From the IMG/VR virus record IMGVR_UViG_3300042301_003793: a stretch of 64,000 bases of DNA; one strand, given 5' to 3'. The stretch comes from a virus. The notes beneath the pieces were generated by a model. It did no database searches. It was not told the DNA's origin and was given only the letters and a program-made list of their open reading frames with translations. The position numbers and the translations under genes were made by a program. This document shows, in pieces, positions 10,318 through 63,451 of this stretch. How positions within the stretch are numbered: the stretch's first letter is position 1; each line of letters opens with the position of its first letter.

Positions 10318-10410
10318 AGATTATTTTATTTATAAATATTATAAAACATTAAAAAATTAAGTATTTATTGTTTATATGTCAAATCACATTAATTATTTTT
10401 AAAATAAAAA

Positions 10411-10572
10411 ATGGAAAATAAAGAAGCAACAAAAGTAGGCTGCCAAGCTTGTAAATCAAATAAAGGTGTTATAAGAACACAAAGATTAGTTTTCACTTTA
10501 GGAACTATCATAACATTATTAGCCGTTTACGGTGGAATAAGATTAGTTAACGATATATCTTCTTTGTTCTAA
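10411..10572 (+). CDS. Small CxxC membrane protein, 53 aa (not in ORF track)
   Basis: [53 protein letters not shown]. One hydrophobic helix; A-rich leader; TATTTAT at 10362-10368. Confidence 0.6.
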
Positions 10573-15573: not shown

Positions 15574-15595
15574 TTTGTTTTTTTATTATAAATAT

Positions 15596-17308: not shown

Positions 17309-17949
17309 TATTCTTTTGTTTTCTTTCTTACCGCAATTACTTTAGACCATTTGGTTTTGAACTTTTCGTAATATTGTTTTAATTTATTCATCATTTTCAA
17401 AAATTCTTCATCAACTTGCATCATTGTTCCGTTGATGTAAACTCCATTGTTTTCACCAATTGAAAAGAAAAATTCCAAATCATATTCTGTAATCTTTCCA
17501 GACCATTCCACATTATTTGGATATAAATTAAGTTTATTAAAATCAACAATTTCTGCAACTTCATTTACAAACTCGTCCATACTTTCCTGGAACGCGGTTT
17601 TATCATCTGTTGTAAGTTGTAAATCTTTTTCACTTGCCCCGTGGATATACAGAATACCACCAGAAATTCTATAACCTTTTTTCTTATCTGTTTTTTTTTC
17701 TTCTTTATCATCACCAGGTTCACCTTCATCAGCGGTTTCATATTCAATATCTCTTTTAATACTATCCATTGGGTTATCTCTTTTGGTAATATTATTTGGT
17801 TCATCTATTTTTCCAGCTTCGGTTTCTGGTTGTTCCAAAATGAGACCATATCTTTTTTTAATTTCAAAAGATTCTTTAACCATTTTTTCACCACCAAGCA
17901 TTGTTCTTGAGGCTTTAAGTAAATTTCTAATTTCTTCGTAATTATTCAT
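17308..17949 (-). CDS. Hypothetical protein (possible head-associated)
   Basis: 213 aa; leader ends ...KRYGLILE. Confidence 0.65.
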   Translation of the reverse strand: MNNYEEIRNLLKASRTMLGGEKMVKESFEIKKRYGLILEQPETEAGKIDEPNNITKRDNPMDSIKRDIEYETADEGEPGDDKEEKKTDKKKGYRISGGILYIHGASEKDLQLTTDDKTAFQESMDEFVNEVAEIVDFNKLNLYPNNVEWSGKITEYDLEFFFSIGENNGVYINGTMMQVDEEFLKMMNKLKQYYEKFKTKWSKVIAVRKKTKE

Positions 17950-34124: not shown

Positions 34125-34346
34125 ATGCCTATAGACATAACAATTAACGATATTTCTGGTCAAACACCATTTGATGTTTACGTATGTAACACCGGACAGA
34201 CATATTGTGTGTATTCGGCAACAATAACATCTGGTGACTTACCTTACACTTTTGAAGTTCCAATTCCTTTTTTGAACTCTGAAGGTGTTAATTTAAGAAT
34301 TATTGATGATAATGACTGCCAAATAAATGAAATACTAATAATATAA
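34125..34346 (+). CDS. Small Cys-containing beta-rich protein; paralog of 45268-45564
   Basis: Start moved to MPIDITIN (34125), with TATTTATA at 34112-34119. Pattern ITINxIxG..PF..Y.C....C.Y...IID...C is shared with 45268-45564. Confidence 0.7.
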   Translation: MPIDITINDISGQTPFDVYVCNTGQTYCVYSATITSGDLPYTFEVPIPFLNSEGVNLRIIDDNDCQINEILII

Positions 34347-35416
34347 TGGCTTGTACTGAAATAAATTTTTGTGTAGATTCTGGTGGTAACCTTTATGATG
34401 GTCAATATACCACAGATAGTGGTTTGTATAATGGTTTTACTTCTTACACTGGTGATAGTGTACCATTTTTTATATACTATTCATTAACTCAAGACAGATG
34501 GTGTTTATCCACAAGTTTGGGTGGTTCTTGTTCACAATTTGGTCCAGTTGGTATTGGTAGTGATTGTCCAGATTTTGATGAAAGTTTTTTTATAACTGGT
34601 GTTTGTATTACAACCACAACAACAACCTCGCCTTGTGATGTTTTTAATTTTGAAGCGATTTTTGATTGTTTGGTCCCAACAACAACTACAACGACTACTT
34701 TAGCACCAACAACTACTACAACAACTACGGTTCCTTTTAATCCTTGTACTGGTGTATCGGTAAATGCTTCAATAACAGCTTACACAACAACTACAACAAC
34801 AATTCCAGTTACAACTACAACAACAACAGAAGTTATAAGACCTTGTAATTTTGATGGTGTTGTAACATTTAATACATTTGATGAATATATGAGATGTGGT
34901 AATAGTAAGAAATTTAGGGATTGTTTAACGGGTATTGAATATTTTTCAAATGATTTATTATTCAATGAATCAGGTGATACATTAATTCAAAATTGGGTTT
35001 ATAAATCAACAATTAATGGTGTTTCTACTTGTGTTACGTTTATGGGTCTGGTAGATAACATTAGTGGTTCTGACGTTATAATAATAAATGAAACTTTAGG
35101 TTCCGAATTACAAGGTGCTTGTTTAGAGTGTGTTCCGGACCAAACAACTACGACCACAACTACCGCGGCACCAACTACGACCACAACTACGACTGTTGGT
35201 TGCCAAATAATCCAATATCGTGTACAAAATAATGGAATTACTGTTCAAGAATTTAAATATTTTGATTGTGATGGAAATACTATAAATTGTATTGTTTCGG
35301 GGTATGGAACGAGGGATATATGTTCAAGTACTCCACCAACTGTTTTACCTAATTCTAATGTATTGGTATATCCAGTTACACCACAAACTTTTTGTAATTC
35401 CGCAACAATTTGTTAA
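34346..35416 (+). CDS. Cys-rich protein with mucin-like poly-Thr tracts (putative virion protein)
   Basis: Seven runs of 6-7 Thr separating Cys-rich modules. Confidence 0.7.
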   Translation: MACTEINFCVDSGGNLYDGQYTTDSGLYNGFTSYTGDSVPFFIYYSLTQDRWCLSTSLGGSCSQFGPVGIGSDCPDFDESFFITGVCITTTTTTSPCDVFNFEAIFDCLVPTTTTTTTLAPTTTTTTTVPFNPCTGVSVNASITAYTTTTTTIPVTTTTTTEVIRPCNFDGVVTFNTFDEYMRCGNSKKFRDCLTGIEYFSNDLLFNESGDTLIQNWVYKSTINGVSTCVTFMGLVDNISGSDVIIINETLGSELQGACLECVPDQTTTTTTTAAPTTTTTTTVGCQIIQYRVQNNGITVQEFKYFDCDGNTINCIVSGYGTRDICSSTPPTVLPNSNVLVYPVTPQTFCNSATIC

Positions 35417-35447
35417 AAAAAAAATATCGTCTAAAAAGACGATATTT
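35415..35447. terminator. Terminator between convergent genes
   Basis: AAATATCGTCT-aaaa-AGACGATATTT with an A-run on the left, giving a U-tail on the minus strand. Confidence 0.75.
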
Positions 35448-35472
35448 AAAATTATCGGTATTTTAAACGATG

Positions 35473-35790
35473 TTATCTTCTTCTTCTAAAATATCTTGAT
35501 TCTGTCATTTGTTCTGAATCCATCCTATCTTGACCCCAATTTTGGTTTGGTCTTTGATTTGCAACATCCATATCATTTCTTTCACTTCTAATTGCAAATT
35601 CTAATTCTTTTAAGTCAGACATAATTTCATCTGGTGTTCTTGCACCCAATGTACCACCTCTTTCTTCTAAAAAACTTCTTACAAAGTCCATAGCACTTCT
35701 TTGTTCCATTTTTTCATCTTCCATTTCAAAAATGGTTCTTTTAATTATTCTTGATAAATCTCTTTCTGTTAACCTAACTATTTTTTTCAT
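35473..35790 (-). CDS. Small putative head-cargo protein with LTE helix
   Basis: Start moved to MKKIVRLTERDLSRIIKRTIFE (35790). TATTTATA at 35810-35803. Confidence 0.7.
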   Translation of the reverse strand: MKKIVRLTERDLSRIIKRTIFEMEDEKMEQRSAMDFVRSFLEERGGTLGARTPDEIMSDLKELEFAIRSERNDMDVANQRPNQNWGQDRMDSEQMTESRYFRRRR

Positions 35791-35828
35791 AACTTTTTTT
35801 ATTATAAATATATCAATATTTAAAAAAG

Positions 35829-36437
35829 TTACTTCCAAATTTCTTTTAATCGCATATATCCTAACACACAAGTGTACGCATCTGTCTGGTCAAAATTTTC
35901 TTTTTTAAGTGTATTGTTTTTTGTATAACCCCAAGTTATTTGTGGTTCACGTTTTGCAACCTTTTCCCAGATTAACATTTTTTTATCAATGTCTTTTGGT
36001 AGACCACCAAATAATACAAATTTACCTTTATCGTTTTCTTGTACTAGTTCTGGCCAAGCATATTTCCTTGAGTTGTATGTTGATACAAATTCTGGAATAA
36101 TACCTAAAATATTATATATTTCTTTAAAAACAAAACTATTAAATCTTAATAAGGTTTGGATGGTATATACGTTATTTGAATTTAGTAGTGGTTCTTCAAT
36201 TATTACTTTAACAATTCCCAAATTAACATATTGTTTTAATTTTTCAGCAAAAATTTCTGATTTTAAAATTAACTCTTTTAACTTATCATCATCACCTTTA
36301 GCCATCTTTGGTCTTGGTGAAATATGTGTTAACTCCAACAGTTCTTGATTTTGGACTTCAAATAAAGCCCACCCAATTGTTTTGGTTGATATATCTAAAC
36401 CAAGTACTTTTGGTGAATTTTTAATTTGTTTTCCCAT
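35829..36437 (-). CDS. ruvC: RuvC-like Holliday junction resolvase
   Basis: VLGLDISTKTIGWA, VIIEEP, FDQTDA acidic triad. Confidence 0.8.
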   Translation of the reverse strand: MGKQIKNSPKVLGLDISTKTIGWALFEVQNQELLELTHISPRPKMAKGDDDKLKELILKSEIFAEKLKQYVNLGIVKVIIEEPLLNSNNVYTIQTLLRFNSFVFKEIYNILGIIPEFVSTYNSRKYAWPELVQENDKGKFVLFGGLPKDIDKKMLIWEKVAKREPQITWGYTKNNTLKKENFDQTDAYTCVLGYMRLKEIWK

Positions 36438-36486
36438 AATAATCTTTTTATTAAGATTATAAACTAAAAGGAATAAAACTAAATAA

Positions 36487-39192
36487 TTAGATGTCTATCT
36501 TAATCACGTACTGTTGAATGCCCTGTCTTAACGTTGGTGATTGTAGTTTAGACATTACAAGAATATCTTTGTTATCATCAAGTAATGCTATTTCAGTTAC
36601 GTATGATTTTGTACCTGGAATCCAAGATGGGTTTGTTGATACTTGAAACTCACTAGAACTTAAATTTATCTTATATTTCATTTCATAAATTGTTGCCATT
36701 ATGTCTGTTTCAAATGCACCATAGAAATAATACTCATCACCAAAATTTAATGATTGCCCAGTATATCCAACTGGTGTTAGATTAATGTAGTCATTTAAGT
36801 TATAGTATGGTGCTGAATCGTAGTTATCTGGAGAAATAATAAACGTTGTTCCAGTTAATGAACTTTGAGTAATAAAACCATCTATAAAACTATTTTGGAT
36901 TTGTGTTGTAAAATCTACTTTTTTCCACATCGCAGGATTCGGTCTTTGTCCTGTTTGTACTTTTTGAACAAGGATTTCAAATTCATCACCAAAGAAACCG
37001 TTTGGTGTAATACAAGGTGAACAATTTGGTAAATAATTTGTAGTTGTAGTTGTTGTTATTGGAAATATTGTTGTAGTTGTTGTTGTACATCCACTACAAT
37101 CATCAACCAAATCAATGATTAAATCACCTTTTGATTGGATACCAGAACTTGAACAAACAACAGTTCCAGTATTTCCTGGTAATGTGAGTGGTGATGTTTT
37201 TGTTTCATCACAACAAGGTGTAAATATAACATTTGTACTTCCAGTAAGTTCTGTATTTGTAATTTGATATCTACCACAGAATGAATTAGTTGTTGTTGTC
37301 GTAGTAATAGGTTGTAAACTATATGGTTGTATTAAACAATTAAAGTCACCACCAAATCTTACAGCGACATTTTTTGAAACGTCTGGACTACACTCGTTAT
37401 TGTTACCTTTAATCGATGAATAATAATTACAATGTAATGAATTTGTAAAACAGAAAGTGTTATTTATTCTATATGTCACAAATAAAGTTTGTGAATCACC
37501 AGTTAATATACCTTGTGATGATGTTGTTGTATCACAAGTATTTGGTGTTATTAATGAAACTTGTGGTGCCGGTAATGTCCAGTTTCTATTTGACTTATAC
37601 GACATCGCTGCAATAATTTCTTCATCATCAATAATAACTAACTTACTATCTGGAAATACCTTACCAATTCTATTTGGTAATCCATCTGAATTAGGGTTTG
37701 TGTCCCACAAATGATAATACCTAATACCAGGTTGATTCATTCCTTCATTTTTTGTGGACTGAATATAATACGGTGTAAATAATTCTTTATCGTCAAATCC
37801 TGGAGGATCTACCCAGAAAGTTTGACCATTACAACAATTTGGATTTTTATGCCACATTAACCAAGGAATATGTAACTTAAAGTTTCTTGCTTGTCCAGTT
37901 GTATCATCTGGATTGGTTGGGTCGTATGGTTCTAATGCAAATTTTTCACCATAGAAGAAATCAATTGTTTGATTTGTATAATGAATTATTGCAATTGCCT
38001 TTTGTTCTTCTGGTTTTACTTGTACAATTTCACCAAAAGAATTATAATAAAAGGTATAACTTGTGTCTGTTTGTCCTAGACTAGAATTATAACCAAAATA
38101 TTCTTTACTACCTATATAATCTATTGAACCGAATTGCGTATAGTCTTTGAATTGACTTGGTATCAACCCTGCTGGGTTTTCTGTCCAAGGAATGTTCATA
38201 TTCCATACTTTAACATCAAATTGGTCTGTATCACAAATAGATTCAAAATCAATAACTTGTTCACTCCAATGTGGCATAGGTGTTATACTATCATATAATT
38301 GAGTCATACTAGAAGGATATAAAATTGCTCTAGAATAACAATTTACAGGATAACAAGTATAATTTGGTACGTTTCTATCAACTGTGATTGTATCCAAACA
38401 AATATCAACAATTTTGTAAGTTAACATAATTGTACAACTTTGTACTGGCATAAAACATTGTGGTGGTGGAGGTAATGGACATTGTGGACTAGGTGTTGGT
38501 GTTAAACAAGGAGTCTTTGACGGTGTAGGTGTTGGGGTTGGTGATAAACAAGGTATAATGGTTGTAGTTGTTGTAGTCGATGTTGTTGTCGTTGTTCCAG
38601 TAGGTGTTGGTGTCGGTGTAGGTAAGTTTACACATAGACAATTACAATCTGCTTGTCCGTCATAAAAAATTGTTATAATATCACCAATTTGTGGTTTTAC
38701 TGTATTTGGTGTATTACATCCAGAATAAATAAGTGTAATTTGATTTGACCCATCTAATGTCGACATATCAACAACATAGTTACCACTTAAAGCATATTGA
38801 TTACCAGTTAAAACTTCCCAATTTATTGTAGATGCTGTTGTAATTCCACCAAAAAATCCTCTTAATGGTGCTCTATTAAAAACAGAGTCAATAACAGAAT
38901 CCATAAATGGAATACCATAAGTGTTTCTTTGGTTAGTATCGGCATAATAAGGATATTTAACATACTGTCTATTTGATTGTGGAACACCAACAGTATTTTG
39001 ACTGTTAAATCCAGGTTCTAACACAAAACTATTAGATTGGTTGTAGGTTTGGGGTAATTTATCATACGATACTTCACTATCTCCAACTTGGAAATAAGAT
39101 ATTTTAAAATTACCTTGTGATAATTTTTGTCTACCTACGTCTGTGATTCTTGTGTTTACTAGACCTGATGTATTTTTTATTATGTATGCCAT
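36487..39192 (-). CDS. Tail collar/fibre-type protein with Pro-Thr and poly-Thr tracts
   Basis: N-terminal ITDVGRQKL...FQVGDSE and C-terminal VTEIALLDD...LVMSKL resemble the two halves of a tail-collar fibre N-domain. The insert is Cys- and Thr-rich. TATTTATA at 39206-39199. Confidence 0.6.
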   Translation of the reverse strand: MAYIIKNTSGLVNTRITDVGRQKLSQGNFKISYFQVGDSEVSYDKLPQTYNQSNSFVLEPGFNSQNTVGVPQSNRQYVKYPYYADTNQRNTYGIPFMDSVIDSVFNRAPLRGFFGGITTASTINWEVLTGNQYALSGNYVVDMSTLDGSNQITLIYSGCNTPNTVKPQIGDIITIFYDGQADCNCLCVNLPTPTPTPTGTTTTTSTTTTTTIIPCLSPTPTPTPSKTPCLTPTPSPQCPLPPPPQCFMPVQSCTIMLTYKIVDICLDTITVDRNVPNYTCYPVNCYSRAILYPSSMTQLYDSITPMPHWSEQVIDFESICDTDQFDVKVWNMNIPWTENPAGLIPSQFKDYTQFGSIDYIGSKEYFGYNSSLGQTDTSYTFYYNSFGEIVQVKPEEQKAIAIIHYTNQTIDFFYGEKFALEPYDPTNPDDTTGQARNFKLHIPWLMWHKNPNCCNGQTFWVDPPGFDDKELFTPYYIQSTKNEGMNQPGIRYYHLWDTNPNSDGLPNRIGKVFPDSKLVIIDDEEIIAAMSYKSNRNWTLPAPQVSLITPNTCDTTTSSQGILTGDSQTLFVTYRINNTFCFTNSLHCNYYSSIKGNNNECSPDVSKNVAVRFGGDFNCLIQPYSLQPITTTTTTNSFCGRYQITNTELTGSTNVIFTPCCDETKTSPLTLPGNTGTVVCSSSGIQSKGDLIIDLVDDCSGCTTTTTTIFPITTTTTTNYLPNCSPCITPNGFFGDEFEILVQKVQTGQRPNPAMWKKVDFTTQIQNSFIDGFITQSSLTGTTFIISPDNYDSAPYYNLNDYINLTPVGYTGQSLNFGDEYYFYGAFETDIMATIYEMKYKINLSSSEFQVSTNPSWIPGTKSYVTEIALLDDNKDILVMSKLQSPTLRQGIQQYVIKIDI
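38459..38623 (-). repeat. Coding low-complexity tract LPTPTPTPTGTTTTTSTTTTTT...PTPTPTP...PLPPPP
   Basis: Codon-degenerate ACN and CCN repeats within 36487-39192. Confidence 0.85.
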
Positions 39193-39230
39193 CTATTTTA
39201 TAAATATTTATAACAATTAAATTTAAAATT

Positions 39231-41294
39231 TTAATTTGGTTTTATTGGGTTTACAACCTGCACATCACAACAATCACAATTATTAACCGTTGGTTTACCT
39301 ACAATATATAAATTAAAGTCTCTATTTGCACCACGACATAAACCTACAGGTAAGTTATTTATAATATCAGTATACGAGCCTGTTATTGTTTGTCCACCAC
39401 TTATTGTTAACTGTTTTGTATAAGTTTTAATTTGTTGGTTTTGTGTTGGTACAGGTACTATACAATTGATATTTAAAGCCACTTGACTATTTGTTATTAT
39501 TGGTACACCCATGTCTCCTAATCCACCATCAAATGTTACCGTATTATCTAAACTTGGTGTTGGTAGAATGTTTGGTGGATAGTAATTTAATTGTGAATAT
39601 TGTTCAATATTAAATGTAATTATTTGTGTTGGGTCTAAATTAATAGATGGTTGTATTTGGAATGTATTAGAAACATCGTCTAATGTTAATGTTAAAACAA
39701 AAGTTTCTGGATTAGTTTGTGTTAAAGTAACTAAAGAAGGTGTTGATTGATAACCTAAACTGTCTTTTACAACAACTATATAACTTCCAGCATTTAAATT
39801 AGAAAAAGTTGATAATGTACTAAATGTTGTTCCATTATTAATCGAATATTGATAGGGTGGTACACCACCAAATGCTTGTATTGCGATACTACCTTTTGTA
39901 TCACAAATTAAATCATTTTTTGTTATATTTAAACTAATTTCTTTATAGTTAACACAATCACCAGTTGTTACTGTAATATCGATAATAGTAGGATCACCAA
40001 GTCCTTGCCAACCAATTAAAGGTGGCGGTGTTGGATTGTTATTTATAATACTACCAAACACAGAACTTCCTGAAACAATCCACTGATTTGTCGTTCCAGT
40101 ATTAAAATACATAAAATATAAATCATTATCTGATAACCAACTTTGGGTTCCATTTGTAATATTATATGGTTCAAATTGTATTTGTTCAAAAATAACAGAT
40201 TGTAATTTTGTAGGGCCTTTTTTTCTAATGGTCATACATAAATCACCATATACTGGAATTGGTTTTGTTGTTGTAGTAGTTGTAGTTGTTGGTGTTTCAG
40301 CTGTTAGGACACAGGTTGTGTTGGCTGTAAAATCACCATAAAAATCAATAACAGTTGCATTGTAATTTCCAACATTAAGATTGTAAATTAATGGTGTAAT
40401 ACTTCCAGTACTCCAAATTATTGTATACGGTGATGTTCCACCAGTTATTATTAGTGTTGCGGCACCATCAAATGAATTATAAGTTGACGGATGTGTTACT
40501 AAACATTCAACTTCCATTGGAAATATTGTTAATACGTCACATTCATTTCTTGGTTCTATTGTAATTGGTATAGAACAAGAACATCCTTCTTCTTGGTTAA
40601 TCTCAAACCCATAAGTTTCAACACAGCTTTGTACTCCGATATATTTTACTTCGTAACATTTTTCTGGTATTGGTAATGGATCTGTTATAGTAATTAATAA
40701 TGAATTATTTACATATCCAGAGAAAATTGGACTTGCACTAGTAAATGTTGGTACTGTTCCATCACAAGAGGATATCTCATAACAATCTGTATCACAAGGG
40801 TTACTTTCAACACAACTTACACAACCCAAGTCACCAAAAACTTCTGGGTTTTTAAAAATTGGGTAATAATTTGGTTGTAAGCCAAATTTTATTGATTTTT
40901 TATCGTAAACATAAAAACACCCATCATATGTTTCACCGCTAAGTAATGAAGGTGTATAACTATCACAATATACCGAATCATCAAGATTTAAGTAATCATC
41001 ATTGGCTAAAATTGTAATGTATTGGTTATCAATACAACAAGAACTTAAAAAATAAATTGAATTTGGTGTTACAACTTCATCACGTTGGAAATTATTTGTA
41101 TTTCCACTTATTGGGAATAACCCACAAAAATTTATTATAGCACTTTCTTGTGGTTCAAAACTTTCAAAAACAGTATTTCCAGAACAATCAATAAAAGTTA
41201 GTGTTTCAGTTGTTGTTCCAGTATTAACAATACCAGTCACTTTACAAGTTGTAAAACAATTTAAAATAAGGGGTGAAAAACTAACTTTAGCCAT
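39231..41294 (-). CDS. Cys-rich virion protein with SprB-like repeats and a poly-Thr tract
   Basis: GGTSPYTIIWSTG...NLNVGNYNATVID, GGVPPYQYSINNG...NLNAGSYIVVVKD, and PTTTTTTTTKP. Confidence 0.65.
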   Translation of the reverse strand: MAKVSFSPLILNCFTTCKVTGIVNTGTTTETLTFIDCSGNTVFESFEPQESAIINFCGLFPISGNTNNFQRDEVVTPNSIYFLSSCCIDNQYITILANDDYLNLDDSVYCDSYTPSLLSGETYDGCFYVYDKKSIKFGLQPNYYPIFKNPEVFGDLGCVSCVESNPCDTDCYEISSCDGTVPTFTSASPIFSGYVNNSLLITITDPLPIPEKCYEVKYIGVQSCVETYGFEINQEEGCSCSIPITIEPRNECDVLTIFPMEVECLVTHPSTYNSFDGAATLIITGGTSPYTIIWSTGSITPLIYNLNVGNYNATVIDFYGDFTANTTCVLTAETPTTTTTTTTKPIPVYGDLCMTIRKKGPTKLQSVIFEQIQFEPYNITNGTQSWLSDNDLYFMYFNTGTTNQWIVSGSSVFGSIINNNPTPPPLIGWQGLGDPTIIDITVTTGDCVNYKEISLNITKNDLICDTKGSIAIQAFGGVPPYQYSINNGTTFSTLSTFSNLNAGSYIVVVKDSLGYQSTPSLVTLTQTNPETFVLTLTLDDVSNTFQIQPSINLDPTQIITFNIEQYSQLNYYPPNILPTPSLDNTVTFDGGLGDMGVPIITNSQVALNINCIVPVPTQNQQIKTYTKQLTISGGQTITGSYTDIINNLPVGLCRGANRDFNLYIVGKPTVNNCDCCDVQVVNPIKPN

Positions 41295-41306
41295 ACTAAT
41301 AAATAA

Positions 41307-42287
41307 TTAGTTTTTTGTTTTTTCAATATAAGATTTCATAACATCAATATATTTTATTGTTGTACTATTAGAATCTATGTAATTAAAGTGGCTTTCATTT
41401 TCACGTAGTTTTTCAATTGGGTCAACATTTATATAATCGCCTTTATAAAATTTTGTGGATTTAAGGGTATCGGTTACACCCGCCATATGAAGAATAGGCA
41501 TTTTTTCATATTTTTCTATGTTGTCTGTTGCCCAAGAAAAATCAAGTTCATTTGTAATTTCAGTTTTATAATCAAATAACCATAAATTCCAAAGTAATGA
41601 CCACATTTCAGCTGTCCAAAATTGTATCTGACCAGGGTTGATTGGAAATCTTCTTTGGTAGTCTAACATTTGATTATATAGTGGTGTACAGTCATCATAA
41701 ACTTTTTTCCAAAACTCTGAATTTGTATTTTTTATAAGATATTGACCGCCACCAGAATTTTTTTGATTTTCTTTTATTACATCAACATCTATTCCTACAA
41801 CACTGGCCATTTCTTTTATTAGTTGTCCTTTTTCTGAATTTGGGTGTCTAGTTTCGTAGTTGTTACAACAATACATAATATAATCATAACCAATATATCC
41901 AATTGTGTCGGACAAATAACTTATATCATCTTTAACTAAACTTTTAAAGTCTGGTAGTGTTCTGAAAATAATATCAGCATCGTGTAAAAATATTTTTTTA
42001 CCCAGTTTTGGGAACTCTTTTAGCCATTGTGAAACAAGGTATGGTTTTATACTAGGTATGTAAGATTTTACATCTCTATTGTCTTCATAAAAATGTATAT
42101 TAACACCTAATTCCTTTAACTCTAAAGCACCTTTACTTGGTTCTTTAATTCCGTGAACAAGAGCTAATAAAACGTGTATTTGTTTTGGTTTAATTCCTTT
42201 TTCTATGAAATTATGAACATATAGTTTAATTTGCCAATGAAAATATGGAACGTCTGGTTGTGCAGTTACAAATACAATATCTTTCAT
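41307..42287 (-). CDS. GT-A glycosyltransferase resembling plant SGT1/HPAT (GT96/GT95) protein O-glycosyltransferases
   Basis: YFHWQ...VHNF, YIPSIKP..VSQWL, LHDADIIFR (DxD), GGGQY, WTAEMW and ILH in the same order as the recalled SGT1 motifs YFDWQ..MHSF, YPAINKP..W, ILDADM, WISEMY and MHY. No signal peptide or TM. Confidence 0.7.
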   Translation of the reverse strand: MKDIVFVTAQPDVPYFHWQIKLYVHNFIEKGIKPKQIHVLLALVHGIKEPSKGALELKELGVNIHFYEDNRDVKSYIPSIKPYLVSQWLKEFPKLGKKIFLHDADIIFRTLPDFKSLVKDDISYLSDTIGYIGYDYIMYCCNNYETRHPNSEKGQLIKEMASVVGIDVDVIKENQKNSGGGQYLIKNTNSEFWKKVYDDCTPLYNQMLDYQRRFPINPGQIQFWTAEMWSLLWNLWLFDYKTEITNELDFSWATDNIEKYEKMPILHMAGVTDTLKSTKFYKGDYINVDPIEKLRENESHFNYIDSNSTTIKYIDVMKSYIEKTKN

Positions 42288-42316
42288 ACTAAAAAAGTAT
42301 AAAGGATTGTTTTATT

Positions 42317-43537
42317 TTATAAATAATATAATACTTCAGCAGTTCCTAAAAATGTCGCACTCGCACTTAGTGGTGTTATACATACCCACATTTCATCAAG
42401 TGTTCCATTAACATTAGAACCAACTCTAATTTGATTGTCATCCACTTTAATCGTTGTAAGTGCTGATGTTCCTAATTCACCAATTAAGGATGACATAATG
42501 TGACCTGGTGATGTTATTGTTGCTGTCACAGTTCCGTTGTAAATTGAATATTGGAATGGTGAATTTGGTATATCGGTCCAACTTGGGGTTACAGACAATG
42601 TGGGGTTAAACTCAATAGTCACCAAGTAATTATCATTTGTGGTGTTTAAAATACTCAAACTACTATATTGTGATGTCACTGATTTATAACCTTGTTTAAG
42701 TCTATAACCAATATATGGGTATTTTGTACCTGACGAATTTAAATCTGCGTTTGTTGCGTTTTGAATACCTACAGTGGAGTACAACCCGTTTAATGCCCCT
42801 TCTGTTGATACTTGTGAACATATCATATCAAAATATCCAGAACCAACCCCAACCTGTCTTATTTCGTACCTGATAGGTTGATTTGGTGATGACATATAAA
42901 CATTTGGTTCATTATTTGCACAATTGTGTTCTGTAAAATAAAATAATTGTCCTGCGATATCCAAACCGAATCTCATTCTACCAACACCTAACCATTGATA
43001 ATCAACCGACATTAAATTAGTGTTAGACCAATTTATTCCTACTGGGTCAAACCCATTATTATCCCACACTGTTGTTGCGGCACTATATACCGTTGTACCC
43101 GACCTCCATATCTGAAAACTTATAGTGTTTGTGACTCCATTACTTTCTAAAAAGAATCCATCAAATACTGAATTATATGTGGATGCGGTTGTTGATGTGA
43201 ACCCACCAACTCTTTTTATAACATTTGTCTCTAATTGGAAGTTTGAGAAACTCGCTTGAAATAATTGACTCTTACCTGGTTGATAAATTGGGTGTGTTTT
43301 ACCTTGTCTAATTACCAAATCATTATTTGCGGATGTTGACATTCTAACTCTAGCATACTCTTGATTAAAAATAGAAGTTGCGGTTCCTGCTGTAACTTCG
43401 TTTATTTGTAATGGATTTTTATCATAGACGTGTTTTATATCCACTAAATTTTGTACGGCTGCTGTTCTTAATCTACCAAACGCATCAAGGTTTGGGCTAT
43501 CTGAATAAGAAACTTTATTATTAAAAATGAAACTCAT
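42317..43537 (-). CDS. Beta-rich virion protein (DAFGRLR family)
   Basis: Start moved to MSFIFNN (ATGA overlap with the upstream stop); NLDAFGRLR, DYQWLGVGRMRFG. Confidence 0.6.
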   Translation of the reverse strand: MSFIFNNKVSYSDSPNLDAFGRLRTAAVQNLVDIKHVYDKNPLQINEVTAGTATSIFNQEYARVRMSTSANNDLVIRQGKTHPIYQPGKSQLFQASFSNFQLETNVIKRVGGFTSTTASTYNSVFDGFFLESNGVTNTISFQIWRSGTTVYSAATTVWDNNGFDPVGINWSNTNLMSVDYQWLGVGRMRFGLDIAGQLFYFTEHNCANNEPNVYMSSPNQPIRYEIRQVGVGSGYFDMICSQVSTEGALNGLYSTVGIQNATNADLNSSGTKYPYIGYRLKQGYKSVTSQYSSLSILNTTNDNYLVTIEFNPTLSVTPSWTDIPNSPFQYSIYNGTVTATITSPGHIMSSLIGELGTSALTTIKVDDNQIRVGSNVNGTLDEMWVCITPLSASATFLGTAEVLYYL

Positions 43538-45234
43538 ATTATCCACCAATTATTATTTCTTGCCACAAATGTAAGTGACATATAGTTTATGTTCATATCT
43601 ATATAAGTATTACCATCTATTAAACCAGTTGTTGGTGTTACCCTTATTCTATAAGAACCTGCAGTTCCTCTTTCGTCTTTTATTTTAAAATTAAAACCAT
43701 CTAAACTTAATGGACTAGGAATTTGTATATCAGTATCACCACTATAAGTTACACCGTAATATGTGAAATTTGTTGATGCGGTATATCCTGATACCGAAAC
43801 ACTTGTTGTGTTTATATATGATGGTTGTGCTGTTTTATATTTTACAACACCTGTTGCGGAATCTCTTACTAAATAATCAGTTAAAGATTGATCCAAAATT
43901 GGTGTATCCTGTAATGCTAAATAATTTACGTGTAGGGTACAAGCAGAAACAGATTTAACATCTTTACCTACAGCACTTGATAAAATATGGTTTACTGTGT
44001 TACCAGAACCTCCTAAAATAGATGAATAACTACATAGTGTTGTATTTAATCTACCACCACCAACAAACGATCTACATCCAGAAGTTTTGTTTGTATCACC
44101 TCCAGCAATTGTTGAGTTTAGACTTAAGGCTTCATTTCCAACACCACCACCAATTGTTGAGTAACATGACGCGGTATTGCTACCACCACCACTTACTGTT
44201 GAAAACAGTGTTGCTGTATTATTACCACCACCGGCAACAGTAGAGTAGTCTTGATTTGTGACGTTGAATGTACCTCCATTTATTGAATTTGCATAACCAG
44301 ATGCTGAGTTTCCCAAACCACCAGAAACAACCGAATAAATTCCTGATACCGTATTGTAGTAACCACCTGAAATTGTGGTATAAATTGCTGAAGTTGTATT
44401 ACAATATCCACCACTTATTGTTGACATACAACCATTTGTTGTATTACAATATCCACCGCCGATTGTTGAATAATTACCATTTGTTGTATTTCTAACACCA
44501 CCACTAATTGTTTGACCATTGTAATATGAAGAAAGTGTTGTATTAAAAGTTCCTCCAGCAATTGTATTTCCATAACTATCAGAGTAAGCACTATAAGATG
44601 ATATTGTGTTAAAAGAACCGCCACCAATCGTTGACCCATAAACACAATAACTTCCAGATGTTGTTATTGTGTCTATTTTATTTAAACATCCTCCTCCGAT
44701 TAAACTTGAGCACGTATCTACTATTGTATTTCCTTCACCTCCACCTATTACTGAAACACCTCCAAACACCACGTTACAAAACCCACCACTAATTGTTGTG
44801 TAATTATTTAGAGCTGTATTACAACCACTTGTATTAAAGCTTCCGCCACCAACTATTGATCCTTCACCACCGGTTGTATTATTTTGACCACCACTAATAG
44901 TACCAAGAAGATCTATTGATTTGTTATTCAATCCGCCAGAAACAACGGCCCAATATCCACTAGCTGTGTTACAAAACCCACCACTTACTAATGAACAATT
45001 ACCACTAGCATCATTATTAAAACCAACTCTCTGTGTTGAGTCTGTGCCAAGTCCTACTTCATATAATTGTGTATTTCCAGTAAATCCAGATAATATTGCG
45101 TCAGATACTTGTTGTATTGTTGCTTTATATGATGAACCAGCTGGATTTTGTGATGTATCACCAGTAATCACAATATGTATTAAATCTTGTAATGTAACTC
45201 CTGTTGCTAATGTTCTGTCGGTAAGAAATGCCAT
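43534..45234 (-). CDS. Tail fibre with GGxxN repeats
   Basis: About 20 [ISV]xGGxxN repeats of roughly 14 aa, and a C-terminal ...IKDERG...LTFV..NNWWII domain. TATTTATA at 45255-45248. Confidence 0.7.
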   Translation of the reverse strand: MAFLTDRTLATGVTLQDLIHIVITGDTSQNPAGSSYKATIQQVSDAILSGFTGNTQLYEVGLGTDSTQRVGFNNDASGNCSLVSGGFCNTASGYWAVVSGGLNNKSIDLLGTISGGQNNTTGGEGSIVGGGSFNTSGCNTALNNYTTISGGFCNVVFGGVSVIGGGEGNTIVDTCSSLIGGGCLNKIDTITTSGSYCVYGSTIGGGSFNTISSYSAYSDSYGNTIAGGTFNTTLSSYYNGQTISGGVRNTTNGNYSTIGGGYCNTTNGCMSTISGGYCNTTSAIYTTISGGYYNTVSGIYSVVSGGLGNSASGYANSINGGTFNVTNQDYSTVAGGGNNTATLFSTVSGGGSNTASCYSTIGGGVGNEALSLNSTIAGGDTNKTSGCRSFVGGGRLNTTLCSYSSILGGSGNTVNHILSSAVGKDVKSVSACTLHVNYLALQDTPILDQSLTDYLVRDSATGVVKYKTAQPSYINTTSVSVSGYTASTNFTYYGVTYSGDTDIQIPSPLSLDGFNFKIKDERGTAGSYRIRVTPTTGLIDGNTYIDMNINYMSLTFVARNNNWWII

Positions 45235-45267
45235 CTATAGTTTTATTTATAAATACATTAAGTTTTA

Positions 45268-45564
45268 TTATTGGAACTGATAAATTTGATAATCCATAAA
45301 GAAGAAGTCGTCACCATCTTGATATTGTTTTTCAACTGGTTCAGCTTCAATACAAATAAGTGTTATTAATTTTTCACAACCAGTAGAATCAATCAGTTTT
45401 AAACCTATGGCTGGTGCTGTATCAAATTGTGATGGTAAGGTTATTGTAACTGGCGTTGTTATTATTTCACCAATATAAAAACATTGATTACCATAAACAT
45501 CACAAGCGTAACCACTAAATGGTGGTACTAAACCAGTTATTGAATTTATAGTTAAATTTGTCAT
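45268..45564 (-). CDS. Small Cys-containing virion protein; paralog of 34125-34346
   Basis: MTNLTINSITGLVPPFSGYACDVYGNQCFY...LIDSTGC. Confidence 0.65.
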   Translation of the reverse strand: MTNLTINSITGLVPPFSGYACDVYGNQCFYIGEIITTPVTITLPSQFDTAPAIGLKLIDSTGCEKLITLICIEAEPVEKQYQDGDDFFFMDYQIYQFQ

Positions 45565-45566
45565 AA

Positions 45567-47765
45567 TCAATCACAAGAAACACAAGATATATTATATTCT
45601 ATTACTAGATTTGAGATGATTTTTGTATCATTTAATAAATTATACGTTTCCTTTCTACAATTTTTTTCAATTTCACTACAATCATTTGTTATAGTAATTT
45701 TATTATTTGTGTAATCAATAATAACTTCACCGATACCAACAAATGTTTCTAAAATGTTTTTTAATCCAAGTCCCCAGTCTTGGTCATTTGGAAAGTCATT
45801 AAGTCCGTTTGATATATAAAATATGTCTTGTTTTGTTTCTGTACCAACTGTAACCTGGACACTAAATTTAGCTTCATTTACAATGCAGTTTGTATCACCT
45901 GAAGTTAAATCATAGAACCCCTCGTTAAACATTTGTTTAATTCCTCTTTTTCCTATTAGTTCAGAATTTTGGAAATTACCCTCACAGATTTCAAAAGTTG
46001 TGTATGTTCCTAAAATTTCTGTACCTTTTAATTTTGTTGTTCTAGTAAATGAACATCCATTAGAATCGATTACGGTACAAGAATATGTCCCAGATGTTAG
46101 ACCGGTAATAATAAGACCAGTTTGTAATCCCACATTTCCTGTCCAATTAAATGTAAATGGTGGTGTTCCACTTGTAATTAGAACATCTATTTCACCATCA
46201 TTTCCAAAAACAGGATTAAAGGTTACAAAGTCAAAATAAACACTACTTGATGGTGCAATAAATATTGGTTTGTACTGAACACATCCAGTACTATCTGTAA
46301 CAGATAATGTGTAGTTTCCAGATGGTAGACCATTAAAATTACCATTAAACTGAAAAGGTATATTTGTAGGTCCAGTTAAACTATAAACTATTGGAAATGT
46401 TGCACCGCTTGAAACAGAGACACTGAATTTTCCATTTGAAAGGCCACAAGTTGTCCCAGTTGTTGATGCCGAAATTACAAATTTATCAACAGATGAAATA
46501 CTTGTTGTCCCAGTGTAAACACAGCCTAAGTTATTATCAATAAATAAAGTATATGAGCCATTACCTAGTGAGGCGAATTGTTTATAAACCCCACCAACTA
46601 TGTTTGATATATATGTTCCATTTGCACCAGATAATGTGAATGTATAATTTCCACTTCCAATACCATTATTAATATAAACATCTAAAATACCATTATTTGC
46701 ATTACAATTTGAATTTGTTGTTATTAAATCAACCGAAGCAAACGAATTTGGTGGTGAAAGTGTGTACTGACCAGTTACGGTACATAGTGCCGAATCTGTA
46801 ACGGAGAATGAAAATTGACCAGAAGATAAACCAGTAAATGTATAGTTTGTATCAAAAGTTACTGAAACATCATTGTTTGATCCACTATAATAATATGGTG
46901 CCGTTCCACCATCTATCACAACACTTAATTCACCATCTGGTTGTAAACAAGTTGGTTGTTGTGTTATAACACTTATAATTTGAATAGGTTGTACCTCATC
47001 TATTTGTATATAATCAACATTTGTACACCCTTCGGAATTTGTAATTTCAACAGGGTAAAGACCTTGTGTTAAACCCGTTACAGTAGTTCCAGTTTGTCCA
47101 TTAACATTGGCTAACCAATTTATTGTATAAGCACTTGTTGGGCTTGTAAGACCAGTAATGTATATTTTTCCATTATTAATTCCTGGTACACACCCAGCCG
47201 AATTTACCTTATAATACCCAAATGTAAAATTTGTAGAAGACCTAATCACACAAGATTCTGAAGTACCAGAACAACCACCATTATCAAACGCATCAACGTA
47301 ATAAGAATCTGGTGAAAGGTTGTTAAAAACAACATAGTTTTGTAATGTCGATGTGGTACCACTATCAATGTAATTATTTAAAATGTCGTATAAATATATT
47401 TCGGTTCCATTAACATATGTTTCAGTAGTTGCCGTTATAGAGCCGTTATTAAGATTACAAGTTGTTCCTTCACAAGTAAGTGAAACTGTTACACCAGATG
47501 AAATTGTAAAAGATAGGTATTGTATTGTTGGTGGTAAATCAGAGTCCTGAATTGTTAAATTATAATTCCCAACTGGTAAATTATTAACATAATAAAAAGG
47601 GTCTAAAGATGTAACCGCTGAGGTTGGTAATAAACCACTAACACTAGGACCTTCATAGACAATCCAATCAGGACTACCTCCAACTATTTCAAATTGTAGA
47701 ACACCAGAAGATGTATTACTACAATCGCCTGTTATTAATATTGATGGAAATGTTATAAAACTCAT
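45567..47765 (-). CDS. SprB-repeat virion protein
   Basis: Start moved to MSFITF (ATGA overlap). About six units such as DGEIDVLITSGTPPFTFNWTG...GLTSGTYSCTVIDSNGC. Confidence 0.75.
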   Translation of the reverse strand: MSFITFPSILITGDCSNTSSGVLQFEIVGGSPDWIVYEGPSVSGLLPTSAVTSLDPFYYVNNLPVGNYNLTIQDSDLPPTIQYLSFTISSGVTVSLTCEGTTCNLNNGSITATTETYVNGTEIYLYDILNNYIDSGTTSTLQNYVVFNNLSPDSYYVDAFDNGGCSGTSESCVIRSSTNFTFGYYKVNSAGCVPGINNGKIYITGLTSPTSAYTINWLANVNGQTGTTVTGLTQGLYPVEITNSEGCTNVDYIQIDEVQPIQIISVITQQPTCLQPDGELSVVIDGGTAPYYYSGSNNDVSVTFDTNYTFTGLSSGQFSFSVTDSALCTVTGQYTLSPPNSFASVDLITTNSNCNANNGILDVYINNGIGSGNYTFTLSGANGTYISNIVGGVYKQFASLGNGSYTLFIDNNLGCVYTGTTSISSVDKFVISASTTGTTCGLSNGKFSVSVSSGATFPIVYSLTGPTNIPFQFNGNFNGLPSGNYTLSVTDSTGCVQYKPIFIAPSSSVYFDFVTFNPVFGNDGEIDVLITSGTPPFTFNWTGNVGLQTGLIITGLTSGTYSCTVIDSNGCSFTRTTKLKGTEILGTYTTFEICEGNFQNSELIGKRGIKQMFNEGFYDLTSGDTNCIVNEAKFSVQVTVGTETKQDIFYISNGLNDFPNDQDWGLGLKNILETFVGIGEVIIDYTNNKITITNDCSEIEKNCRKETYNLLNDTKIISNLVIEYNISCVSCD

Positions 47766-50700
47766 TGTTCTGCACAAAGTATAGTAAAGTTTATACCTAG
47801 CTCAAGTGTAAAGATATCTTCATCGTCGAAAGGTGTACAATTAACATTATAAATAGTTAAAATTTCACTATTAACATTAATATCATACGTATATCCATCG
47901 TTTTCAATTTCTGTTAGTATTGTTTCAACACCAGTAATCCATTCCGAATCAGTTGGGTAATTTTGGTACCCATAAGTTTCACTAAATAAATCACTTGACA
48001 ATGTTATACCATTTAATTTTGATATCACATACCATTGAACATATAGGGTATTAAGTTGGCACTGATCTAAATTAGATAGTCCTTGACTTTCTAAATAAGA
48101 ATTTAAAGCGGTTGTTAGTAAAACACCAAATCTACCACCGATAGGGTTGTATGTCCAAGGATATAGTCCACATCTAAGGAATTGTGTTGGGCAATCGTAT
48201 GCAAATAACTGGGTTACTAATGAACAAGGTTTACAAGGAATCGGTACAATTTTACAACCAAATTGTCTTCTCCACACAAATTTTTGTCTATGGAATATTG
48301 AATTTTCTAATCTAACTCCGGTGTTCCAAATTGTTGTTGCTGGAACCATTTGTTCTACTAGTCTTATCCAGTAATCACCAATACCATTAATGTAGTCCAA
48401 CATTGTTTGATAATTAAAATTATCATTTTTAATTCCTGCTAATTGTTGTGACTCTAAATATTTCCAATATATTGACGATAGTGTTGGGTAACCACCTGTC
48501 TTACCATCTGTAATAAATTGTCTATTTCTAACGTTAATCATATTTCGCCAGAAAGTTTGTGCAAATTCAAAAAAAGTTTTTTCTTTTGGTTTTGGTACAA
48601 TTTCAGTCCAATCTATACCACCTCTTTTTGGGTAAGGTGTGTTTGGATTTGGGTTACAATAAGTTGGCTGTACATAATTTAAACCTTCGTTTGGAATTGG
48701 AAAATTATATTGTCTTGACATGCTCCAAACATCATATACCAAACCAAAACTTGGGTTCAACATAACATCAACATTTTTAACATTCAAAACAAGACAGTCA
48801 TCTGAAGCATAATAATAAGCATTAAAATTACCATCAGAACTTTTTCTCAAATCACTTTCATTATCGTACCAACTTTTTTTGTTATCTATAACTCTTCTAA
48901 GTCTAAATCCTAAATCCATATATGGAAACTTCCTATATCTTTCTAGGTATTCTTCACCATAATTAAATGGTAATAGTTGGGTTTGATAACTAGGATTTGA
49001 ACCAGTGAAAACAGATGTAGTTAAATCTATTTTTTCTGGCATTCTATGTTGTGGTGTTGATTCGAACCATCCACCACCAATTTGGAAATAATAATTTTCA
49101 CTATCCACTGGTGTACTTGGGCAACCAAAACTATCTATTGGGTAATCTTCTCTAGTTAAAGAAATGTCGATTATTTTACTTGAAGTTGTAACCCCGGTAT
49201 ATTGTACACCCATAACAGAATAAACATCTGTTGGGTCCAAAACTGGTATTGATTCAACATATGTCCCTGTAGCAACAATGCTAAATTTAGAATCAAATTC
49301 GTTTATATTAATTCTTTGATCCGCAATATAAATGTACTCGTTGAAGTCAACTAGAAATTCTGGTGCTCCAACCAACCTTAAAAGTATTTCTATAGATTTT
49401 CTAGTTCCTTTTGATTTGAAAAGAAATGCCGAATTTAAAATTAAATTTCTAAAGTACTGGTAGTTTATTTCATCTGGTGTCTTACCTACTGGTACGCCAC
49501 TAAAACCACTTTCACTTGTACTAAAAACAGAGTTTAAGAAATTCTCTTCAGTGATTGGTGACATATTTATTTTCCAACCTAATGTTTCGGCTAAATTCTT
49601 AAGTAATTGTGATGGTATATCATTTTTAACATTATACCTAACTGAGTTCATTGTTGATAGAGCATCAATAAATGTTTTAGTTTCATCAAAACTTCTTCCA
49701 TAGATTTGCAGTACTTTTTCAACTTTTTTATCTACAGTATCAAATTCTTTTATGGATGCTGTTGTTAAAAACCTAGAAATTAAATTTGTTTTATATAAAT
49801 CAAGACTTGTTGCAAAACTGTTAAGTTCGGACAAATAATTATCAAATGACCTAGTTTGTAAATCTAAATTCCAAGGACCGTTTTTTGGAAATCTTAATGC
49901 TTTATAACTGAACGTAAAAGTACCATCTTCATTTTCAATTGGTACTGAAAAATAAGATGTATAGATTGGTGTGTTATTTCTATTTAATAAGAAATTTTCT
50001 ACCTCATCAAAATCTTCGTTAAAAACTTTATTAACATAAAAATCACTAGGTCTAACTATTATATTGTCGTAACTAACCGAATTACCAGAAAATGCGTTCC
50101 CTTCGACATAAATTGTTAAGACCTGGTCTCCATTTGTTACTGGTACAATTTCATTTATTGGGTAATGTTTATCATCAACAATAACTACATATTTTGAATA
50201 GTTAGTTTTTAAATTTCTTAAAGTTGAAATAGATAATTCAGTAGCTTGGAAATTTTTTTCAGCATTAACTGTAAAATCAATTCCAAATGGATTATTAATA
50301 TTTTCTAACTCTAACTCAAGTTTTGTTTCGTTTTCAACAGAATTGTAAACAATATTTATTGCTGTTGTTCCAGTTAAGTAATTTATTCTTGGGTTTGTAA
50401 CTTCAAGAGCTGCTGGAAAAAAATTAATTATCTTTTTAATCGAAGCCGAAAATCTTAGTACCAAAGAACCATATAATGTAAAGTTTGTAACTTGAGATAA
50501 ATCGTAATTTGGATATACCTGGAAATTATTTGCAATAATCATTTTTGATTCTTCGACATTAGATATATTCATAGTGTCGAGTGAAATTGGGTCTGAAAAC
50601 GAACCAATCTCAAAATTCCTATCTTGTTTTTCTGTAATATTAGTTGTGAAGGCAAAATTTGCTTGGGTAAGTCCACCACCATCAACTAATTGTAAACCAA

Positions 50701-62984: not shown

Positions 62985-62989
62985 TTTTT

Positions 62990-63451
62990 TTAAATATTAA
63001 GTATTACAAAATCACTTGATTCAAAAGCACTATTTGTAACTTTATAATCAATTTTTACTCTTGCTGTATATTCTTTTTGTGATAATCCGGGTACACGATA
63101 TTCTCTTTGTCCTTTTGAGTTAATATATGTTGCTCCTGGGTCCTCTAAATCAGCTGTTGCTTCTTTTATTTCAATATTTGTAACCAGTACTCCTGGCATA
63201 TATCTTCCAACACTTTCTCTAATTTCAGATTCAACATCAGAAAAAGTAGGACCATCTAATGGTTCAAAAATAAATTCATATAATCTTGTCCCAAAATCGG
63301 GTAAAAAATATCTAGTTCCTTTCCTTGTTAAAAGTAGGTGTATTAAATTACTTCTTATTTCATCATCAGCAGTTGGTGTAACACCAAGATACTTACCAAG
63401 TGATGATTGTTCAAAAGGAAATGCTAAACCATATGTTGTACCGTATGCCAT
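62990..63451 (-). CDS. Baseplate wedge subunit (T4 gp25-like)
   Basis: IRSNLIHLLLTRKGTRYFLPDFGTRLYEFIFEP. Confidence 0.9.
   Translation of the reverse strand: MAYGTTYGLAFPFEQSSLGKYLGVTPTADDEIRSNLIHLLLTRKGTRYFLPDFGTRLYEFIFEPLDGPTFSDVESEIRESVGRYMPGVLVTNIEIKEATADLEDPGATYINSKGQREYRVPGLSQKEYTARVKIDYKVTNSAFESSDFVILNI

Follow-up and report, generated by a model that had tools for sequence, protein, structure and literature searches.

Does a phage that encodes a glycosyltransferase among its structural genes use the enzyme to decorate its own particle? The question is raised by a stretch of 64,000 nucleotides (nt) of the virus record IMGVR_UViG_3300042301_003793, which we call the window, and in which the minus-strand gene at 41307-42287 encodes P0001, a putative soluble glycosyltransferase, close to genes whose products carry runs of threonine (Thr) or alternating proline (Pro) and Thr. 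A sequence-only reading of this DNA had seen in the arrangement a candidate virion O-glycosylation system built around an enzyme resembling the plant HPAT and SGT1 glycosyltransferases. On the basis of profile searches, predicted structures and gene neighbourhoods, we estimate at roughly three in four the probability that P0001 glycosylates the Thr tracts of virion proteins.

The product of 41307-42287 has 326 residues and contains all the motifs that had been quoted for it, within PYFHWQIKLYVHNF, SYIPSIKPYLVSQWL, LHDADIIFR, NSGGGQY, FWTAEMW and PILHMAG. No N-terminal hydrophobic segment or membrane segment was seen in it by eye, in agreement with the earlier claim that a signal peptide is missing, and the predicted structure opens with a β-strand at residues 5-11. 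The protein belongs to the family phrog_4417, annotated in PHROGs as of unknown function (E 1.1e-71, 242 bits, residues 6-319 aligned with profile positions 3-290 of 293). The AlphaFold2 model, calculated with an alignment of 52 homologues, has a predicted local distance difference test score (pLDDT) of 97.2 and forms a single Rossmann-like α/β/α domain matching the solved GT-A enzymes. In the VIA structural comparison ten GT-A enzymes superpose at Z 13.4-15.3 over 210-245 residues, including glycogenin (15.3), the Skp1 α-galactosyltransferase (14.6), LgtC (13.8), WbbM (13.8), GlyE (13.7), UGGT (13.7) and LARGE1 (13.5), and a Foldseek search with the same model gave 375 matches with E <= 0.001, UGGT ranking first; among predicted viral structures the close ones are uncharacterised phage proteins only. 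Judged from the predicted model, P0001 is thus a GT-A glycosyltransferase whose closest solved folds are retaining enzymes of GT8, GT24 and GT77.

A GT8-type structural match had been named beforehand as a result that would speak against glycosylation of virion proteins. The nearest solved folds are indeed GT8-type, but the top matches are mostly protein-glycosylating enzymes. P0001 shares with the protein glycosyltransferases of the GT8 clan (glycogenin, GlyE, the GT77 enzyme of Skp1 and the GT24 enzyme UGGT) the fold, the DxD motif and, if our reading holds, a protein or protein-linked glycan as acceptor, GlyE of Streptococcus pneumoniae acting on a serine-rich-repeat adhesin; they align with P0001 at Z 13.6-15.3 over 210-240 residues, but sequence identity to them is only 9-12%, and the likeness is one of structure. 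The Pfam search of P0001 gave only a sub-threshold match to Nucleotid_trans/GT77 (E 0.007), Glyco_transf_8 (PF01501) gave no match at E <= 1 in P0001 or in 52 relatives, and phmmer and profile searches of the PDB sequences with the enzyme returned only noise.

The DxD motif corresponds to D103-A-D105 within HDADIIF. In sets of 52, 140 and 87 homologues D105 is invariant and D103 is kept in at least 90% of the sequences, and H267, Q222, W229 and K282 are likewise invariant in the alignments of the family. This conservation bears on the idea that P0001 is without catalytic activity and serves in the structure or assembly of the tail, having kept no more than a glycosyltransferase fold. The position of the gene between structural genes lends this idea some colour, as does the homologue gp49 of phiFL2B, annotated as 'major tail protein' in one database record. 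Yet homologues that share no more than 30-40% identity all agree in the DxD and in some 12 further positions, which is the pattern of an active site, and members of the family are fused to other enzymes; we therefore consider a purely structural role very improbable. The family is also large, comprising 1168 metagenomic clusters at 90% identity (E <= 1e-5) and 847 representatives at 50% identity, with at least 590 viral contigs matched.

Three genes of the window encode candidate acceptors. Of 14 runs of five or more Thr, present in four of the 68 open reading frames (ORFs) of at least 100 residues, 13 fall in the genes of P0002, P0003 and P0004, and so the poly-Thr and Pro-Thr tracts attributed to these genes by the sequence-only reading were found again. 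P0002 (39231-41294, minus strand; 687 residues) is a cysteine (Cys)-rich protein with SprB and immunoglobulin (Ig)-like repeats (SprB repeat E 1e-7) and one T8 tract at residues 336-343, about nt 40266-40289; its relatives range from 285 to 2068 residues, most of them keep Thr runs, and it is probably a distal tail or fibre protein and a candidate acceptor. P0003 (36487-39192, minus strand; 901 residues), encoded by the last gene of the structural operon, contains PTPTPTPT, T5-S-T6, SPTPTPTPS, TPTPSP and three T6 runs, its Pro-Thr and poly-Thr tracts lying at residues 191-236, 630-635 and 703-718 (about nt 38485-38622, 37288-37305 and 37039-37086). Across relatives its N-terminal part of about 620 residues is conserved and its C-terminal part is variable, the usual pattern of fibre-like receptor-binding proteins. 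The AlphaFold2 model of P0003, built from 30 orthologues, reaches a pLDDT of 53 and places the Thr/Pro tracts in segments below 50, which is compatible with linkers. P0004 (34346-35416, plus strand; 356 residues, 20% Thr and 6% Cys) has seven T6-T7 runs at about nt 34610-35194, paired between small Cys modules; its gene is divergently transcribed and lies beyond a RuvC-like gene, and many related contigs have a homologue with Thr runs at the corresponding place.

Cys-containing modules flank the Thr tracts in these proteins, which contain 3-6% Cys, and the runs are coded by a mixture of ACA, ACT, ACC and ACG, so they are not the product of pure triplet slippage. No annotated relatives were found for P0002, P0003 and P0004, and tblastn gave no relative of P0002 or P0003 in cultured phages. 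The fourth ORF of the window with a Thr run, at 18531-19568, has a T5 at residues 326-330, near its C-terminus; it has no family match and adjoins an Amidase_2 endolysin-type gene (17942-18538).

The evidence that carries the argument comes from the behaviour of the enzyme and the tracts in other phages. In 80 related metagenomic contigs (58-86% identity) the Thr runs are found chiefly in the two genes that follow the enzyme and in a divergently transcribed gene some 5 kb off, despite the very variable length of the first downstream gene. Among cultured phages, seven unrelated ones have a homologue 33-37% identical to P0001, its gene being located in the virion module, and in all seven poly-Thr proteins are encoded beside it or within a few kb, mostly as C-terminal tails. 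The tails are carried by the capsid and tail-tube proteins in the Enterococcus phage phiFL1A, by the tail tube in VPE25, also of Enterococcus (together with an internal run in a head-module protein), by the tail tube and a small downstream ORF in the Staphylococcus phage SA2, and in the Lacticaseibacillus phage R3.3 by proteins that are probably capsid and tube, although its record lists them as hypothetical. In Semele poly-Thr occurs in two small proteins encoded just upstream of the homologue, in the Clostridium phage phiCTP1 in the gene just upstream, at the position of a tube gene, and in a small head-module protein, and MA9V-3 has internal 20-residue serine (Ser)/Thr tracts in two upstream proteins. 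The arrangement recurs in the Bacillota prophages that were found in bacterial genomes.

The association is also found in a sample drawn without regard to the enzyme. Viral stretches picked by the pattern (ACN)7AC contained a homologue in 7 of 118 cases, whereas none was found in 117 controls picked by (GAN)7GA (Fisher p = 0.014); the seven homologues belong to other lineages and are 33-43% identical to P0001. A closer comparison was possible among 27 loci encoding tail-tube proteins of the phiFL1A type (65-100% identity), of which 12 encode the enzyme. In every one of these 12 the tube protein ends in a poly-Thr tail and another ORF also contains a Thr run, whereas both features are missing from each of the 15 loci that lack the enzyme. 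The tree of the tube proteins implies about four changes of state, at least two of which are forced by well-supported branches. In the capsid family of the R3.3 type the enzyme and the poly-Thr tail occur together in 36 loci. The single locus without the enzyme (L432:6001-7120) encodes a capsid protein whose core is 94% identical and in which an Ig-like C-terminal domain replaces the tail; from its sequence, this locus looks like a natural swap between two capsid decorations. In a further locus with the enzyme (L468:6001-6920) the C-terminus of the capsid protein reads QSSLPGRQQRPPHPL where the Thr tail is expected, and the tail is found in another frame, likely through a frameshift or a sequencing error inside the Thr-coding repeat. 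Taken together, the co-occurrence and the joint gain and loss of enzyme and Thr tracts across unrelated phages strongly support the view that the enzyme serves the Thr tracts of virion proteins, and the co-occurrence anticipated by the sequence-only reading is borne out by the tube loci, the capsid loci and the pattern-picked stretches alike.

As a separate observation, a 5.3-kb contig (L350) binned as 'Candidatus Woesearchaeota archaeon' encodes a glycosyltransferase 69% identical to P0001 beside an ORF with a Thr run, and is probably a misbinned phage contig.

The same comparisons bear on a different use of the enzyme, namely that it glycosylates host envelope glycans, leading to a superinfection block or a change of serotype, or else the phage DNA, the Thr tracts being mere linkers encoded nearby. 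The nearest solved folds do include the lipopolysaccharide enzyme LgtC and the O-antigen enzyme WbbM, glycosyltransferases for DNA or envelope are often encoded by phages (PMC12619734), and two C5 cytosine methylases, of a kind that can feed DNA hypermodification (bioRxiv 10.1101/2023.12.21.572611), are encoded in the window (20145-21843). Yet in all the phage lineages examined the enzyme is encoded within the virion module, and here it is 20 kb from the methylases; the scanned ORFs included no TET/JBP-type oxygenase, and no membrane segment was seen in the enzyme by eye. Above all, poly-Thr tails at the C-termini of capsid and tube proteins link nothing, yet come and go with the enzyme. We consider this explanation unlikely; DNA hypermodification in particular was rejected as the principal explanation of the locus, on the grounds of gene position and of the co-variation with Thr tails.

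The resemblance to plant enzymes was traced through bacterial proteins. Language-model neighbours of P0001 include clusters with PF23452 (HPAT) in 10-58% of their members. A comparison set was then made of the proteins passing the Pfam HPAT threshold from two bacterial genomes, plus their relatives. Aligned by hhalign, the profile of the phage family matches threshold-passing HPAT proteins with probabilities of 91.6% (E 8e-7) and 78% (E 2e-5), and the HPAT profile with 81.9% (E 1e-5). These alignments cover 250-265 columns, in which PYxxWQ, YxPxxKP..W, DxD-[IV]F-R, WxxxM and PIxH are collinear and the DxD of P0001 is aligned with the invariant DPD of the HPAT-type proteins. PF23452 itself gave no match to P0001 at E <= 1, leaving the Pfam gathering threshold unreached; it reached E ~0.09 in 2 of 52 relatives, found nothing in the nearest virus record and 14 control genomes, and gave a single match over 301 genomes of one phylum. 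Since the profile-profile match spans the whole domain with the motifs in order, it supports a distant homology of the phage family with the HPAT family, kinship in a superfamily and not membership.

The description of P0001 as HPAT-like can accordingly be kept as far as the GT-A fold, the DxD and the order of the shared motifs in the 78-92% alignments are concerned, but not as an assignment to the Pfam family. A likeness to the motifs of plant SGT1 is put forward by the sequence-only reading, and the HPAT kinship is supported by way of the bacterial PF23452 proteins; longer fused relatives sought in the direction of plant SGT1 were only phage and bacterial fusions, and we know of no solved structure of GT95 or GT96. 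The plant and algal hydroxyproline O-arabinosyltransferases (HPAT; GT95, PF23452), with UDP-arabinofuranose as donor, and the peptidyl-serine α-galactosyltransferase SGT1 (GT96) are GT-A enzymes. They begin the glycosylation of structural proteins with Pro- and Ser-rich repeats by attaching a sugar to hydroxy-amino acids, which is the point of similarity to the reaction proposed here. They are, however, Golgi membrane proteins, whereas P0001 is soluble and without signal sequence, and their acceptors are hydroxyproline or Ser, whereas the candidate acceptor here is Thr. The scanned ORFs of the window did not include a prolyl hydroxylase.

The bacterial relatives open a further possibility, in which the substrate is a small ribosomal peptide, or one non-structural protein of the phage, instead of the Thr-rich virion proteins. 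Homologues that occur independently of Thr-rich proteins, which the sequence-only reading had counted as adverse to its proposal, do exist in Bacteroidota chromosomes, but they stand in contexts of LanC-type peptide modification. In Chitinophaga, Mucilaginibacter and Elizabethkingia a LanC-like gene directly follows a two-domain homologue (L362:5998-8873, L384:6001-8801 and L391:6001-8183), which in L362 is preceded by a SPASM-type ORF, and there is no poly-Thr neighbour; their gene content suggests that these three loci serve to make glycosylated ribosomal peptides resembling lanthipeptides. Other relatives of P0001 are fused to radical SAM/SPASM domains. The bacterial PF23452 proteins (P0287-P0406, e.g. 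L430:1006-2139, minus strand) are mostly fused to PqqD and bear the database name 'PqqD family protein'; PqqD is the element by which such peptide pathways recognise leader peptides, and the fusions suggest a class of peptide glycosyltransferases that has gone unrecognised. Because of these LanC, radical-SAM and PqqD contexts, the bacterial relatives may be supposed to act on peptides. The family is hence not tied to Thr runs everywhere, and its contexts are compatible with a superfamily whose members glycosylate peptides and proteins.

For the phage enzyme itself a ribosomal-peptide role seems to us improbable. No LanC, radical SAM or precursor-like gene adjoins the phage gene in the window; the chromosomal forms have two domains (450-580 residues), with an added Glyco_transf_7C, whereas the phage form has one; and such a role leaves unexplained the phage-specific coupling to Thr tracts. 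The partners fused to phage-like forms are further glycan-building enzymes, namely GT2, GT4, GT6, GT25, GT60, O-FucT, methyltransferases and sulfotransferases, and suggest that domains of the P0001 type start or join a multi-step glycan. In a metagenomic protein of 1915 residues (P0277), GT4, a methyltransferase (PF05050) and GT2 accompany a domain with 67% identity to P0001, a complete glycan assembly line in a single chain.

We propose the following course for the glycosylation of virion proteins by P0001. The enzyme would be made in the cytoplasm together with the late structural proteins and, in a metal-dependent manner through its DxD, would move a sugar from a nucleotide sugar onto the hydroxyl groups of Thr runs in the phage's own particle proteins. 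In the present phage the sugar would probably be received by linkers of poly-Thr and Pro-Thr in three proteins, rich in Cys and of distal tail or fibre-like character, encoded at 39231-41294, 36487-39192 and 34346-35416, and we favour the view that all three, P0002, P0003 and P0004, are substrates. In Bacillota phages the same enzyme family would serve the short C-terminal poly-Thr tails of major capsid and tail-tube proteins. The outcome would be a glycan coat on the virion, acting as a shield, as stiff hydrated spacers or in adhesion; the benefits put forward earlier, protease resistance, stiff linkers and adhesion, are speculation. The analysis itself shows the fold, the conserved motif of catalytic type, the distant homology of the family with peptide glycosyltransferases of the HPAT type and the tight coupling of enzyme and Thr tracts in genomes; from these we infer the activity of P0001, the use of Thr as acceptor, the identity of the sugar and the role of the coat.

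Several points weigh against this proposal. Virion glycosylation by enzymes of the phrog_4417 type is, for every member of the family, a prediction from sequences and models. The counts of co-occurrence include closely related contigs, and the independent events are fewer than the raw counts. In the window the Thr tracts are internal linkers and not the C-terminal tags of the Bacillota phages, Thr linkers occur in unglycosylated proteins too, and the window does not extend to the genes for the capsid and the tail tube of this phage. The virion or tail status of P0002, P0003 and P0004 is taken from gene position, and the model of P0003 is poor (pLDDT 53); the name 'tail operon', used by the sequence-only reading, is likewise a matter of position, the genes lying on the same strand downstream of the baseplate-wedge and phrog_1645 genes. 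No second glycosyltransferase or nucleotide-sugar gene was found among the 44 ORFs of the window that were scanned against PHROGs, Pfam or both. Lastly, homologues in the chromosomes of Acidimicrobiia and of Bacteroidota (Chitinophaga, Mucilaginibacter, Elizabethkingia, Pedobacter and Sphingobacterium) are without a poly-Thr neighbour.

The glycosylation of virions by phage enzymes is established for mycobacteriophages (Freeman et al. 2023, as cited in PMC12619734). The mycobacteriophage system resembles what we describe for the Bacillota relatives in having its own glycosyltransferase and glycans at the C-termini of capsid and tail-tube proteins, the tails being predicted here from the genes, and in a presumed cytoplasmic reaction on the phage's own particle proteins. 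It differs in that the phages considered here are of Bacteroidota type or infect Bacillota, with near-pure Thr runs as candidate acceptors, and in that its tags are C-terminal whereas the tracts of the window are internal linkers of distal tail proteins. Two features of the mycobacteriophage type recur: the glycosyltransferase gene lies between a phrog_1645 virion protein gene and the last two structural genes, and Thr-rich extensions on virion proteins co-vary with the enzyme, the latter in other phages, the tracts of the window being internal. Virion O-glycosylation is reportedly described for the mycobacteriophages Che8, Corndog and Myrna by Freeman et al. 2023 (Cell Host Microbe 31:1216). 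To our knowledge, mycobacteriophages are the only phages for which glycosylation of the particle by the phage itself has been demonstrated, and in them it alters recognition by antibodies. A looser parallel is A64R of PBCV-1 (PDB 2p6w; Z 11.3), also a virus-encoded cytoplasmic GT-A enzyme for its own major capsid protein, which differs in belonging to a eukaryotic virus and in its much weaker structural similarity; A64R builds unusual N-linked glycans. Literature searches on phrog_4417-type enzymes, on poly-Thr tags or HPAT in phages and on virion glycosylation beyond the phages of Actinobacteria, those of Bacillota or Bacteroidota included, found nothing relevant. Virion self-glycosylation is of a known kind, and the novelty lies in the Thr and Pro-Thr linkers of distal tail proteins as presumed acceptors.

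The surroundings of the gene are those of a phage with a contractile tail. The window has a G+C content of about 30%, most genes are on the minus strand, and on this strand a contractile-tail structural module can be recognised from family matches. Reading down from 63.9 kb, the baseplate wedge genes (61146-63451, minus strand; phrog_219, phrog_6, phrog_261 and phrog_43) are followed by several very large unannotated proteins and then, in order, by 45567-47777, 42317-43549, the glycosyltransferase gene, 39231-41294 and 36487-39192. The first of these (minus strand) encodes a structural protein of 736 residues that contains an SprB repeat and, in addition, an Ig-like domain of the J type; Thr makes up 12.6% of it, yet runs of four or more Thr do not occur. 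The gene at 42317-43549 (minus strand), directly upstream of the glycosyltransferase gene, encodes a virion structural protein (phrog_1645 'virion structural protein', E 3.4e-47). Past the end of the operon lie a RuvC-like resolvase gene (35829-36437) and replication genes for a primase, an exonuclease and SbcCD. The baseplate-wedge genes and the order of the structural genes indicate that the phage is contractile-tailed, and its hosts are probably Bacteroidota, as suggested by the SprB repeats and by the Chryseobacterium phage MA9V-3 being the nearest cultured relative of the enzyme; megablast of 12 kb of the window gave no match in cultured phages.

An octamer, TATTTATA, located before the glycosyltransferase gene (42318-42325, minus strand) had been read as a motif of the gene's own. 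The match is present, 31-38 nt before the ATG, and overlaps the stop codon of the upstream gene. The window holds 32 copies of TATTTATA against 14.4 expected, many of them 5-40 nt before start codons (e.g. 39199-39206, 45248-45255, 15587-15594, 19586-19593 and 10331-10338), and the octamer is generally enriched in AT-rich spacers. With only about twofold enrichment and the overlap with a stop codon, a separate promoter for the glycosyltransferase was not adopted.

Other genes were noted in passing. The two C5 cytosine DNA methylase genes are adjacent (20145-21047 and 21025-21843) and are followed by a gene for a sigma-70-type factor (21840-22664). The product of 10569-11498 is a chaperone of the DnaJ type in its full length, comprising the J domain, the zinc finger and the C-terminal domain, and ORFs in the regions 726-1562 and 7206-7961 encode a Methyltransf_24 domain fused to DUF3310 and a DUF932 protein.

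Beyond the single locus, we consider it rather likely that these observations belong to a second, widespread virion O-glycosylation system in tailed phages of Bacillota and Bacteroidota. Such a system would consist of one HPAT-like soluble glycosyltransferase and a portable poly-Thr tag, either a C-terminal tail of capsid or tube proteins or a fibre linker, which would move as a unit and in which the tag could be swapped for an Ig-like decoration domain; the same superfamily would span the glycosylation of phage particles, of bacterial ribosomal peptides (LanC, radical-SAM and PqqD contexts) and of plant extensins. If this is true, glycan-coated virions would be common, both among environmental phages of Bacteroidota type and among those infecting Enterococcus, Staphylococcus, Lactobacillus and Clostridium, including some phages that find use in therapy and in food. 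The finding would then bear on phage immunogenicity, persistence and adsorption, and on the interpretation of cryo-electron microscopy maps and proteomics, in which modified tails would go missing from the data. The enzyme and its tag are in addition a candidate pair for attaching sugars to proteins in bacteria, and the family provides a testable evolutionary link between the enzymes that glycosylate plant cell-wall proteins and the peptide glycosyltransferases of prokaryotes.

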